A DNA stretch of 64,000 bases from an uncultured Clostridia bacterium (GTDB taxonomy: Bacteria > Bacillota > Clostridia > TANB77 > CAG-508), in the NCBI GenBank assembly GCA_947581805.1, contig CANPVM010000003.1, positions 137,775 to 201,774 of the forward strand, read 5' to 3'. Of this stretch, positions 60,510-64,000 are shown piece after piece. Positions within the stretch are counted from its first letter, which is position 1, and the number at the start of each line of letters is the position of its first letter. The notes below the pieces were generated by a model, which was not told where the DNA came from, ran no database searches, and saw only the letters and a program-made list of their open reading frames with translations. The position numbers and the translations under genes were made by a program.

Positions 60510-60798
60510 GTTTCATCCACCTTTAAGAATTTTTTATTACAATACTTTTTACTTTATTATTTTTTTAAGTATATTTTTCTTTTATGCTTCTTCGTAGAAA
60601 CAATTTTTTCGCTATTTTCCTACAAATTATATAGTTTCTATGCTAAAAAGTCAAGGGAATTTCTACCTGTTTTTTGGGAGGACTTAACGAAAAAAGCAAG
60701 AAATTTTCATCGCCTTATTTTGACAAATTTCTTGCTTTTCAACATTCTTTTTATATAATGAAAAGTAAATATTTTTCTATATATTTTTAAACAAGAGA

Positions 60799-60842
60799 GG
60801 TGTCCCCACCGTTCCAAAATGGAACGAAAAGGGGCGTCCCTC
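60799..60842. repeat. 44-bp GC-rich repeat, copy 1 (GGTGTCCCCACCGTTCCAAAATGGAACGAAAAGGGGCGTCCCTC), within hairpin AACAAGAGAGG...CCTCTTGTT; directly 3' of pgeF
   Basis: Identical 44-mer also at 61753..61796. Confidence 0.9.
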
Positions 60843-60846
60843 TTGT

Positions 60847-61632
60847 TTATTTTAGTCCAATAATTGCGGTATTCCTTCCTGCTTTTTCTTTTTCCGCCCT
60901 GTAAGAGTGCATTTGCTCGCTATTACATACTGTGCAAATGTTACTCTCAATAATGTGAGAAGAAGGAATTCCTATTTCTTCTAATAGTTTTCGATTAATA
61001 AAAGTAGTGTCTATGAAATATTTTTGTTCTTCTTTATATTCTCCTTTAGCAATAAACTTCTCTGAATTTCCTAAATAAGAAAAAGTATTTTCAAATATTT
61101 CTTTTACATCTTCTCCTACTTCAAAATGGCATTTACCAATACATGGTCCTAAAAAGCATAGAATATCTTCTTTATTTACACCATATTCTTGCATCATTTT
61201 TATAGCAGCCTTTTGACCTATTTTTTGCACTGTTCCTCTCCAACCAGAATGAATATTTCCAATTGCATTTTTTAATGGAGCATAGAAAAGAATTGGCGTG
61301 CAATCTGCAAAACGTAAAGAAAGCGAAATTCCTCGTTTATTCGTTAATAAGCCATCTATATTTGTATGAAATTCTTGCTTTTTTCTTACAACTTCTACTA
61401 TATCACTATGTGCTTGATGTTCAATTTTAGTAAAGCCTTCTATATCTAAATTCATAACTTTATATAAAGCAGTATAATTATTTGCTTCTTCTTTTGCATA
61501 ATCATTATTTTGACCTTTTAAGGTGTAACAATGTTCTACTTTGTCTTGATATTCTAGCAGTTTTCGAAATTGTAAATATTCTATGTCTCCCTTTTTAACG
61601 TGCAACATTGTTTCATTAGATAAATCTTGCAT
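60847..61632 (-). CDS. pgeF: Peptidoglycan editing factor PgeF / YfiH (LACC1 purine nucleoside phosphorylase-like family)
   Basis: 261 aa; ADC.P (FADCTPI) and GWRG conserved motifs; RBS GAAAGGGTAGAG. Confidence 0.85.
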   Translation of the reverse strand: MQDLSNETMLHVKKGDIEYLQFRKLLEYQDKVEHCYTLKGQNNDYAKEEANNYTALYKVMNLDIEGFTKIEHQAHSDIVEVVRKKQEFHTNIDGLLTNKRGISLSLRFADCTPILFYAPLKNAIGNIHSGWRGTVQKIGQKAAIKMMQEYGVNKEDILCFLGPCIGKCHFEVGEDVKEIFENTFSYLGNSEKFIAKGEYKEEQKYFIDTTFINRKLLEEIGIPSSHIIESNICTVCNSEQMHSYRAEKEKAGRNTAIIGLK

Positions 61633-61752
61633 TATTACTCTACCCTTTCTATAATTTTGTGAATTGTAACTTTATTAATATTTTATTTTTTAAAAAAATT
61701 TTTTAATTATTATTGTCAAAGAAATATTTTTCTTGAAGATTCATAGTAAAGG

Positions 61753-61796
61753 GGTGTCCCCACCGTTCCAAAATGGAACGAAAAGGGGCGTCCCTC
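61753..61796. repeat. 44-bp GC-rich repeat, copy 2, directly 3' of addB
   Basis: Identical to 60799..60842. Confidence 0.9.
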
Positions 61797-61800
61797 CTGT

Positions 61801-64000
61801 TCATTTTTCTTTTATTTTAGCTAAAACGTCCTCTTTTTTGTCATTGGCAATATAGCGGTAAGAATGGCAAGCATCTTCTTTAAAATGACAAATCGATTGA
61901 TACTCACAATATTGGCAAGGTGTTTTTTGATTTTTCTTTTGATAGTATGGTTCTATTTTTATTTGTCCACTTAACATTTCTTTTGCAATTTCTTTTATTA
62001 TATTATTTGTGTGTTTTCTTAAATCCTCGAATTCTTCTTTAGTTACTACATTTGATTTTCCTTTACTAATGTTTCCTTCTTTATCTATATATACAGGAAT
62101 AGTATTAGAAGCTCCATTTATTAAGGATTTATCCATTTTTTTAATGATATTTACATCTGCTAAAATTAATCCATTCATTTTAAATTTTTTCTTCATTTCT
62201 TCTTCGATTTGTTCTTTATCTATTGCTTTATCTGTTTTTAAAATAGGCTCAATTAAACTATAGTATAAAACTCCTGCTGGAAGCACTTCTTCTATTTTAC
62301 AAGCAGCATCTAAATAGGTTAATAACTGAATTTGCAAACCTGCTACTACCTCATTTAAGTCTATGTTTTTTACAGAAGATTTATAATCAATGATACGAAT
62401 ATATTTTCCATTTTCGGTTTTTGCTATATCTATACGGTCAATTTTTCCTGTTATTTCTATTTTTTTGCCATCTTCTAAAGTAAGAGTAATAGGAGCATAT
62501 TCCTTTCCTCTTTTAAATTCTAGTTCATTTGCAAATACTTCAAAATCGCTATTTTTTAAGCCTTCTATTAAGTATTTCATGGACTTCATAACAACATGCT
62601 TTAATTTATTAGTTAAAATTATAAATTTAGCACTACTAGTAAATAGGTAATAATGTGCTAAGCCTAATTTTTCTTCAATGATTTCTTCTACTAGTTTTTC
62701 TATTTCTTCATCTTTTATTGTTTTAATTTCTATTCCTCTTTCTCTTACTGTGTGGAAGAAAGTATCGATTACTTCATGCATGAAAGTTCCTGTATCTATA
62801 GATTGCATTTTATATTCTTCTGCTGGTTTTAATTTTAGTCCATATTTTAAATAATAAGAAAAAGGACAAGAACGATATTGCTCTAATTTAGAAATACTAG
62901 TTACTAATGTATTTCCATAAAGTTTTTGGATATTTTCTTTTGTTATAGTTTCAGGCTCATTTTGATAAGTAAGTGCTTTTTTTGTAGTTTCTAGTTTTTG
63001 TTTCCATTCTTCTTTTTGATTAAAATACTCTTGAACAGAATACCAAATATCTTCTATTTTTTCTTCTTCTTTTTCTTTTCGTAGTTGATTTAATAGTTCT
63101 TCAAATGTATTATTTTCATTTATCATGCTAAAGTAAGGTCTTACTAAATCACTTTTCTCTTCTATTTTCGGAAAAAGCTTTTTTAATTTTGTAATATAGG
63201 TAGAAGGCCTTAGTGCACTACCTTCCATATCAGAAGAAGGATAAGAAAAGAAAATTTTTTCTTGTGCCATTGTAAGTACTTTATAAATTGCAAAATTATC
63301 AGCATATAAATTTTCTAAAGTACCTTTTGCAAGTTCTATTCCTACACTTTTTAATTTCTTTCTATCTTCATCATTTAAGAATCCTTCTTGTTTTTGAATG
63401 CTTGGAAATATCCCATCATTCATTCCTAAAATGAAGACAGCTTTTACACTATTTGTTTTACTTCTATCTAAACTTCCTATCAAAACTTGGTCTTTCGTTT
63501 GTGGAATTCTTCCTAATCCTAATTCAGAAAGACCTATTTTTAATAATTCACGATATTTTTCAAACGTAATATTATCGTCACCAAATAATGCTTCTATTTC
63601 ATCTAGCACTTGCATTACAATATTCCACGCTAATTCTTGTTCTTTTGCTAATTCTACTTTCCCTTGTTCTTCTAATTTTATTTGCTTTTGCTTTAGTTGT
63701 TCTTGTATTCCGTTTTGCACTATAAATTCATAAATTTGGGTATTAATTTGTCCAGCCTTTTTTCTTCCTGTTAAATTTTGTTTTAAATCAAATAAAGGTG
63801 AAATTACTTTTTCTTTTATTTGAATCATTCTTTCTGCTTGCTGTTTTTCTTGTTCTTCTTGCTGTCCAAAATTCCATTCTTTTTGATACCATTTTGAACC
63901 TTTTATTCCCCATTTTCTTGTGTAATTTTCAAATTCATAAAGTTCTTCGTCAGAAATATGGCTAAAACCTAATTTTAAATATTGAATTACTGCTTCATAG
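61801..64000 (-). CDS. addB: ATP-dependent helicase/deoxyribonuclease subunit B (AddB/RexB), C-terminal ~730 aa; frame remains open to window end
   Basis: C-terminal PD-(D/E)xK nuclease with Fe-S cysteines (C..CQYCEY.SIC); reading frame open through 64000. Confidence 0.8.
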   Translation of the reverse strand, partial: YEAVIQYLKLGFSHISDEELYEFENYTRKWGIKGSKWYQKEWNFGQQEEQEKQQAERMIQIKEKVISPLFDLKQNLTGRKKAGQINTQIYEFIVQNGIQEQLKQKQIKLEEQGKVELAKEQELAWNIVMQVLDEIEALFGDDNITFEKYRELLKIGLSELGLGRIPQTKDQVLIGSLDRSKTNSVKAVFILGMNDGIFPSIQKQEGFLNDEDRKKLKSVGIELAKGTLENLYADNFAIYKVLTMAQEKIFFSYPSSDMEGSALRPSTYITKLKKLFPKIEEKSDLVRPYFSMINENNTFEELLNQLRKEKEEEKIEDIWYSVQEYFNQKEEWKQKLETTKKALTYQNEPETITKENIQKLYGNTLVTSISKLEQYRSCPFSYYLKYGLKLKPAEEYKMQSIDTGTFMHEVIDTFFHTVRERGIEIKTIKDEEIEKLVEEIIEEKLGLAHYYLFTSSAKFIILTNKLKHVVMKSMKYLIEGLKNSDFEVFANELEFKRGKEYAPITLTLEDGKKIEITGKIDRIDIAKTENGKYIRIIDYKSSVKNIDLNEVVAGLQIQLLTYLDAACKIEEVLPAGVLYYSLIEPILKTDKAIDKEQIEEEMKKKFKMNGLILADVNIIKKMDKSLINGASNTIPVYIDKEGNISKGKSNVVTKEEFEDLRKHTNNIIKEIAKEMLSGQIKIEPYYQKKNQKTPCQYCEYQSICHFKEDACHSYRYIANDKKEDVLAKIKEK

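Follow-up and report, generated by a model that had tools for sequence, protein, structure and literature searches.

Two copies of one repeat behind pgeF and addB

The subject of this article is a short GC-rich repeat, which we call E, in a stretch of 64,000 nt from an uncultured Clostridia bacterium (contig CANPVM010000003.1 of GenBank assembly GCA_947581805.1, forward-strand positions 137,775 to 201,774); this whole stretch is "the window" throughout. Toward one end of the window three genes lie on the minus strand, addB, then pgeF, then smc, and E stands directly behind the first and again directly behind the second, giving the order addB–E–pgeF–E (Table 1). We have come to regard E, with moderate confidence, as the terminal inverted repeat (TIR) unit of a domesticated Y1 transposase locus of the HUH, IS200/RAYT type (a REPtron or TIRtron), spread within one clade and most likely serving as an intrinsic terminator adjacent to stop codons.

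A sequence-only reading of the window had reported an identical 44-bp element occurring twice, each time 3' of a minus-strand gene. It was right about both. The 44-mer GGTGTCCCCACCGTTCCAAAATGGAACGAAAAGGGGCGTCCCTC has exactly two plus-strand occurrences in the window; no third window copy turned up at up to three mismatches, and 100 dinucleotide shuffles gave no match. The stop codons of pgeF and addB each overlap the core of their own copy. What did not last was 44 nt as the size of the unit. Ungapped similarity runs for 58 nt at 95% identity (60796-60853 against 61750-61807), and the true unit is 55 nt followed by a T-rich tail, its sense strand in the window being the minus strand. The same reading had singled the element out for its base composition, and both copies are indeed the sole non-coding GC-rich islands at their end of a window whose GC content is 30%.

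Table 1. The two E copies and their surroundings (window coordinates)
Feature	Start	End	Strand	Remarks
smc	56955	60509	minus	
Stem extension of copy 1	60789	60797		AAACAAGAG, peculiar to copy 1; pairs with CTCTTGTTT at 60840-60848; visible in the sequence and in folds
E copy 1, 55-nt core	60794	60848	minus	Minus strand reads AAACAAGAGGGACGCCCCTTTTCGTTCCATTTTGGAACGGTGGGGACACCTCTCT; directly 3' of pgeF; nhmmer family member
Exact 44-mer, copy 1	60799	60842	plus	
Central perfect palindrome, copy 1	60811	60825		GTTCCA-AAA-TGGAAC; triloop 60817-60819
pgeF stop codon	60847	60849	minus	TAA; shares the first two bases of the E core
pgeF	60847	61632	minus	Cu-oxidase_4 family, 261 aa; between the two direct E copies
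AT-rich spacer	61633	61747	minus	From copy 2 to the pgeF start
E copy 2, 55-nt core	61748	61802	minus	Minus strand reads GAACAGGAGGGACGCCCC...GGGGACACCCCTTT; directly 3' of addB; 116 nt upstream of the pgeF start
Exact 44-mer, copy 2	61753	61796	plus	
Central palindrome, copy 2	61765	61779		Triloop 61771-61773
addB stop codon	61801	61803	minus	TGA, made of T and the GA of GAACAG; shares the first two core bases
addB, 3' part	61801	64000	minus	Continues beyond the window; contig L001, 100% identical, gives a length of 1118 aa

A repeat family dispersed at gene ends

We scanned one genome per species for 185,579 species (596 Gb) with a pattern in which nothing but the central stem and the CCCC/GGGG pairs was fixed. 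It found 77 pattern-exact copies in 72 stretches, all of them in four related metagenome-assembled genomes (MAGs) of uncultured rabbit-gut Clostridia: 15 in CANQFS, 14 in CANQTK, 28 in CANQXD and 20 in CANRLO, each MAG being incomplete. Positions that the pattern left free are also nearly invariant. A profile search of the fetched DNA with nhmmer added 11 diverged or decaying copies. E has at least 90 copies at unrelated loci in five genomes. The fifth is that of the window organism, which is about 82-96% identical to the four MAGs in shared regions and identical to none. The sequence-only reading had suggested a genome-wide family resembling repetitive extragenic palindromes (REPs). A family it is, confined in the scan to these few relatives and tied, as described below, to a transposase gene that the repeat flanks. 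A scan of viral contigs gave no copy and a search of a plasmid collection no match; a JGI metagenome scan with fixed arms and a free center returned 22 matches, all of them chance hits in GC-rich contigs (43-74% GC) lacking the central hairpin. All the genomes compared are fragmented MAGs or contigs of metagenomes. Repeats break such assemblies, which makes every copy number a lower bound; many contigs of the clade terminate within E. The practical effect is that repeats of the E type break short-read assemblies and can yield false circular contigs.

The consensus, written in the direction in which the adjacent gene is read, is in short form GAACAGGAGGGACGCCCCTTTTCGTTCCA(AAA/TTT)TGGAACG(G/C)TGGGGACACCCCTT followed by a T-run; in full it is GAACAGGAGGGACGCCCC TTTT CGTTCCA(AAA/TTT)TGGAACG (G/C)T GGGGACACCCC TT(C/T), again followed by the T-run. 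Its 5' edge is sharp, at GAACAG, and its 3' edge fades into sequence that is 65-73% T. Whether RNA or single-stranded DNA, the unit adopts a single long hairpin with bulges (-27 to -33 kcal/mol, z about -5) that is stable on both strands, copy 1 of the window reaching -33.7 kcal/mol as RNA (z = -6.4). A 7-bp foot comes first, then CCCC/GGGG, then a top of 6-7 bp. The nesting of GTTCC/GGAAC inside CCCC/GGGG is thus as the sequence-only reading had drawn it, and so is the extra stem around copy 1. That reading had also proposed looking for covariation across copies, and there is some: the basal pair of the foot is GC in 39 copies, GU in 18 and AU in 10. Diverged variants retain the structure, in one case through a compensatory change from UA to GC. 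GGGAC is invariant in both arms and forms a direct repeat on one strand, an arrangement that fits recognition of single strands. At the 5' foot of the stem is AGGAGG, which resembles a Shine-Dalgarno sequence, and the tetranucleotide head, in 79 copies, is GGAG in 46, AGAG in 16, GTAG in 8 and GAAG in 5. The copies that flank the Y1 gene more often have an NTAG head.

The loop at the top of the hairpin has two states and nothing in between. Among 79 copies it is AAA in 38 and TTT in 41, independently of the adjoining G/C site. Orthologues disagree in 5 of 29 pairs, and in one of these nothing else in the core has changed. Point mutation does not account for this; the loop is inverted in place. 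The switching may come from a template switch during replication or from a process linked to the enzyme.

Counting copies against gene ends, as the sequence-only reading had proposed, places the GAACAG side toward the end of a gene in 71 of 76 classifiable copies. Among the 67 with a long open reading frame (ORF) ending within 60 nt upstream, 61 lie no more than 15 nt from the stop codon and 25 overlap it (10 between T and GA, 12 between TA and G, and 3 with the TAG within GAACAGTAG). At least seven of the 12 nt after the stem are T in 62 of 79 copies, and another strong terminator-like hairpin follows within 100 nt in only 9 of 78, which leaves E alone in 88%. The ordinary terminators of the window start 2-10 nt after stop codons, so stop proximity is the local norm and no peculiarity of E. 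A bidirectional terminator had been suggested. Termination is the best functional reading we have, but the element is directional, since its T-run is on one side and 71 of the 76 copies turn the same end to the gene. We found no target-site duplication: k-mers before E recur after it no oftener than in permuted pairs, as expected of Y1 enzymes. Nor did the upstream regions of the copies share a promoter.

Every E site but one lies outside ORFs. At that site a 530-aa ORF reads through E (L010 412-465 and L073 2854-2907, an orthologous pair kept in two MAGs), acquiring the E-encoded tail EQEGRPFSFQNGTVGTPLLLFQKIL. The stop-abutting end of E carries short tandem duplications in L012, L025, L038, L051 and L059, for example CCCTCTTGTTCACCCTCTTGTTC on the plus strand.

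Orthologous loci show what stands in the place of E when E is missing. At four of them, relatives without E bear an unrelated hairpin, a private terminator, at the same spot. Three are in the window, which has private terminators behind smc (56912-56948; E in L067), a 218-aa gene (35853-35880; L015/L039) and a 600-aa gene (45780-45816; L014/L024/L071). The fourth is the 3' end of corA, with private hairpins in L097, L099, L101 and L102 and with E 0 nt after the stop codon in L046, L073 and L106. In CANQFS the end of corA holds a degenerate tandem composite of one and a half E copies (L003 5008-5095), where the other MAGs keep one intact copy. CANRLO (L037) lacks copy 2 of the window; its addB and pgeF are separated by 35 nt that include a ribosome-binding site; in the window E and a 116-nt spacer take the place of those 35 nt, and the last codons of addB are altered. 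Across 29 orthologous pairs from different MAGs the 55-nt core is 95.7% identical, compared with 88% for the preceding 300 nt of coding DNA and about 65% for the spacer that follows.

A Y1 transposase gene between inverted copies

In L046, a stretch of CANQXD, a gene for a 254-aa protein (4302-5066) lies between two inverted E copies. The protein matches NCBIfam REP_Tyr_transpos at 77.5 bits, well above its 21 for IS200. It matches Pfam Y1_Tnp at 44.6 bits, and so do 38 of 38 homologues, in all of which H60, H62, Y120 and N124 are invariant within H-x-H and Y-x3-N-P motifs. A direct phmmer search against PDB sequences gave no match; a profile search matches 4ER8, the REP-associated transposase TnpA_REP of E. 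coli, and this entry is also the best PDB match to an AlphaFold2 model (pLDDT 87; E = 5e-7, TM 0.70), ahead of the transposases of IS608 and ISDra2. The C-terminus matches helix-turn-helix (HTH) families, and the model has a helical domain there.

As far as fragmented MAGs and contigs reveal, this Y1 gene is single-copy, and it stays put. The order ABC-F, Y1, Tex is found in CANQXD, in CANQFS, in L106 from the window's own sample, with a protein 96% identical, and in lineages with 61-78% identity in the protein. The inverted pair of E flanks the gene in L046, L003/L064, L106 and L097-L102; every lineage has the pair except the most distant, L103 (61% identical), in which the downstream repeat is truncated. 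The flanking repeats diverge together with the protein; GGGACGGTCC...GTTCCGAATTCGGAAC, for example, accompanies a protein of 67% identity. The gene-proximal arm, GGGGACAC, fits the published TIR consensus of TIRYT loci, GGGGWSAS (PMC3733652, PMC6006769). A regular-expression screen of the loci for other HUH-Y1 genes found nothing beyond this family and a divergent copy in L004. We had at one point taken L040 for an ABC-F/Tex junction of CANRLO without the Y1 gene; it is a different locus. A conserved motif, TATAAATAGGGGC, lies 30-60 nt upstream of the Y1 start codon in L046, L097, L099, L101, L004 and L106, and is possibly a promoter or operator of the gene.

Besides pgeF, one other gene is bracketed by direct E copies. 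It encodes a GNAT acetyltransferase and lies between the Y1 gene and tex in L106 (9551-10366), where one gene plus one repeat is inserted relative to all other lineages examined. The pgeF unit has a counterpart of its own in Logan contig L002 (ERR10663677; window 60825-61778), whose 954 nt are exactly one period of E plus pgeF, circularly permuted with the break within the 44-mer and without a k-1 overlap. The Logan contig of the Y1 gene has the usual 30 nt of repeat at its end. L002 is either a cycle in the assembly graph or a real circle or tandem array.

We also considered an integron attC site. The copies are dispersed beside housekeeping genes, they are identical in sequence and no integrase is nearby; two E-gene-E units do exist (in the window and in L106), yet pgeF is in its ancestral place. 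A miniature inverted-repeat transposable element of the DDE type was set aside since no target-site duplication flanks E, and the CsrA-site, DNA-uptake-sequence and CRISPR-repeat readings were dropped because copy number, length, spacing and context do not suit them.

Three other features of the window deserve a record. Between copy 1 and a promoter-like site of smc (TTGACT-17-TATAAT, 60654 to 60626) is a second conserved hairpin, AAAAAGCAAGAAATTT...AAATTTCTTGCTTTT (60691-60739), with near-identical copies that share a longer left flank in L037 (3097-3144), L056 (386-440) and L007 (7605-7672); perhaps it is a further small repeat, perhaps a conserved terminator. The convergent genes purC (SAICAR synthetase) and purB (adenylosuccinate lyase), at 24329-26699, stand out as a block with clearly more GC than the 30% of the window and may have been acquired horizontally. 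A minus-strand gene at 18491-19399 encodes a cohesin-domain, LPXTG-anchored surface protein with about 13 tandem repeats of 18 nt (6 aa) at 18679-18916.

What E may do, and where it belongs

By analogy with TnpA_REP and the IS200/IS605 enzymes, the Y1 protein would recognize the hairpins and the twice-repeated GGGAC on single-stranded DNA, and would copy or move E units without duplicating the target. In that form, as single-stranded DNA recognized by the Y1 transposase, E is plausibly a protein-binding site, another of the roles that the sequence-only reading had listed. In five closely related rabbit-gut Clostridia E has spread to at least 14-28 sites per genome, its GAACAG end almost always 0-15 nt from a stop codon or overlapping it. 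From its anatomy, its polarity and its positional equivalence we infer that a transcribed E, as a long bulged hairpin with a U-run, would end and stabilize the transcript of the gene upstream, where relatives have private terminators. In the window, copy 1 would end the pgeF transcript ahead of the smc promoter, and copy 2 would be a lineage-specific acquisition that parts addB from pgeF.

A number of observations weigh against this interpretation. The T-tails of the window copies themselves, with 6 T in 12 nt, are weaker than any other in the family, and copy 2, being followed by UUUACUAUG, may be leaky; compared with CANRLO, moreover, copy 2 is no clean insertion. GC and AT skew do not separate the orientation of E toward genes from its orientation toward replication, coding strands being purine-rich. 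On the side of the enzyme, the protein scores 77.5 bits against the NCBIfam RAYT family REP_Tyr_transpos (NF047646), just below the cut-off of 80, and the canonical GTAG head is present in a small minority of copies. The window does not contain the Y1 gene; that its organism carries one is judged from a contig of similar coverage in the same sample. CANQTK has at least 14 E copies, yet at its locus (L004 7625-8000) the Y1 protein is only 44% identical over the first 73 residues and the upstream E is a remnant, TTTGGGGACGGAGG; between CANQTK and CANQXD the ABC-F proteins are 99.4% identical. In the outgroup lineages, finally, the 10-20 kb covered showed no copies beyond the flanking two, except for one dispersed copy in L103.

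Unlikely, if still a serious proposition, is that E is a purely selfish, non-autonomous element derived from the inverted repeats of the transposase, in which case its nearness to stop codons would reflect selective tolerance together with a preference for inserting, perhaps, at terminator hairpins or in the single-stranded AT-rich DNA of gene ends. E does flank a Y1 transposase gene; close relatives do differ in its presence, and decaying copies, the copy read through by the 530-aa ORF and the lack of target duplication all suit an element of this kind. It is harder to see why such an element would be better conserved between orthologous sites than the coding DNA beside it, why it would nearly always be the sole strong hairpin after its gene, why private terminators would hold the same spot where it is missing, or why the T-run would be retained though it falls outside the invariant core. 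We think it quite unlikely that E acts mainly after transcription, as a stop-proximal hairpin that stalls terminating ribosomes or protects the 3' end of the mRNA in the manner known from REPs of E. coli near stop codons. The distances and overlaps with stop codons given above would suit that role, as would the AGGAGG at the foot of the stem; of the REPs of E. coli only 11-50% are as near as 15 nt to a stop codon, and it is these that lower translation (Liang et al. 2015, as reported in PMC12306157). The ordinary terminators of this genome, however, are equally near stop codons and a U-run follows most copies of E, and a role of this sort is in any case compatible with termination, not exclusive of it.

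The remaining alternatives dispense with the transposase. Terminators spread and homogenized by homologous recombination or gene conversion alone, with the neighboring Y1 gene a coincidence, would explain near-identity over 55 nt, and the two E-gene-E arrangements resemble recombination products; we nevertheless hold this very improbable, given that the inverted pair persists at Y1 across lineages of 61-78% identity and diverges along with the protein, that the gene-proximal arm bears the motif of other TIRYT loci and that 55 nt is short for efficient recombination. We give scarcely any credence to E as an independent small-RNA gene or as a double-stranded site for a nucleoid or regulatory protein. 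The sequence itself is strongly conserved, beyond what the structure asks, but no part of the window matches Rfam at gathering score (60400-62000 gave only chance-level matches, E at least about 0.2), the copies have no common upstream promoter, their polarity toward gene ends is strict and the GGGAC repeats on one strand fit single-strand recognition. The small-RNA module that the sequence-only reading had offered falls with the lack of an Rfam match and of any sign of an independent promoter, and nothing speaks for the attenuator it had also mentioned. The rival it had itself named, a local duplication carrying pgeF, draws on the 954 nt that separate the two copies around one gene and on the permuted contig of the same length; it is refuted by the family scan, because at least 90 copies stand at unrelated loci in five genomes, and the flanks of the two window copies differ.

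E as a transposase-derived terminator can be carried one step further, though we consider the step rather unlikely. The Y1 transposase might actively install and homogenize a standard terminator cassette at gene ends, ousting private terminators; a gene between two direct copies would become able to be cut out, or to be inserted, in circular form; and triloop switching would be the footprint of hairpin processing. The hints for a circular unit are addB–E–pgeF–E, E–GNAT–E and the 954-nt contig.

Nearly all work on what REP-type repeats and single-copy transposases do for their hosts has been done in Proteobacteria. E is a small and very uniform family in reduced, AT-rich gut Clostridia, found almost exclusively at terminator positions. 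It suggests a concrete and testable host function, the supply of ready-made terminators, and with some 20-30 copies and one enzyme gene it is a compact system in which to test whether a Y1 enzyme places, maintains and partially inverts its repeats.

How does E compare with what is already known? Hairpin loops that flip-flop by inversion are familiar from small inversions in chloroplast hairpins and from the flip and flop terminal repeats of parvoviruses. The E triloop is like them in being only AAA or its complement TTT and in switching in place between orthologues; it differs in belonging to a dispersed bacterial repeat. Intrinsic terminators built from genome-wide repeats are known too, as paired DNA-uptake sequences in Neisseria and the Pasteurellaceae, but E is tied to a transposase gene and not to DNA uptake. 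E resembles intrinsic terminators in general in having, in the sense orientation and immediately behind genes, a GC-rich hairpin with a U-run, and it is interchangeable in position with private terminators at orthologous loci. The difference is that one 55-nt sequence, conserved beyond structural need, is reused at dozens of genes. A literature search for "mobile terminators" found nothing specific.

The IS200/IS605 elements and PATEs (palindrome-associated transposable elements) have a Y1 HUH enzyme, hairpin-bearing ends, no target-site duplication and a single-strand logic in common with E. The enzyme gene of E, in contrast, stays at one syntenic locus and only a single end unit spreads; the protein is also structurally nearer TnpA_REP than the TnpA of IS608 or ISDra2. 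That brings us to the REP/REPIN-RAYT systems of Enterobacteria and Pseudomonas, which resemble E in their many extragenic imperfect palindromes, in a single-copy, vertically inherited Y1 gene between inverted copies of a repeat type specific to the enzyme, and in the structure of that enzyme, E. coli TnpA_REP being the best match to ours. RAYT "Group 1" is reported from Clostridia, the 16-mers that flank it being repeated about 12 times (PMC5581495). The differences are several. The head is mostly GGAG in E, GTAG being found in only 8 of 79 copies, and the family as a whole does not carry the GT[AG]G that is conserved 0-2 nt 5' of the stem in REPs. E copies number in the tens and not the hundreds, as single units and not as clusters of bacterial interspersed mosaic elements. 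Its enzyme scores slightly too low for the NCBIfam RAYT model and carries an HTH domain in addition. Almost all E copies are within 15 nt of a stop codon, as against the 11-50% reported for E. coli.

Loci with such a gene between such repeats go by the name of TIRtrons in the literature. They hold TIRYT genes (TIR-associated tyrosine transposases, subclass 2.1 TnpA_Y1), whose products have a C-terminal HTH and whose inverted repeats share GGGGWSAS (Di Nocera et al. 2013, PMC3733652; Quentin et al. 2018, PMC6006769). E has the same RAYT-like Y1 protein with an added C-terminal HTH, the same placing of the gene between inverted repeats bearing that motif, and a flanking repeat that is also a moderately abundant dispersed family, as in Stenotrophomonas maltophilia and Koribacter, two of the few species in which dispersed TIR families are reported (PMC3733652, PMC6006769). 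Domain architecture and the TIR motif, as distinct from a tree, would place our Y1 protein in subclass 2.1. The host is different, an uncultured clade of Clostridia; TIRs of Clostridia or Firmicutes go unmentioned in PMC3733652 and PMC6006769, whose published examples come from other phyla. E is dispersed, although Quentin et al. saw no REP-like sequences adjoining subclass 2.1 genes (PMC6006769), and it is a 55-nt three-module hairpin with a T-tail, strictly polar and abutting stop codons. The E family is a Clostridial addition to the REP/TIR-Y1-transposase systems, and one that probably has a role in termination.

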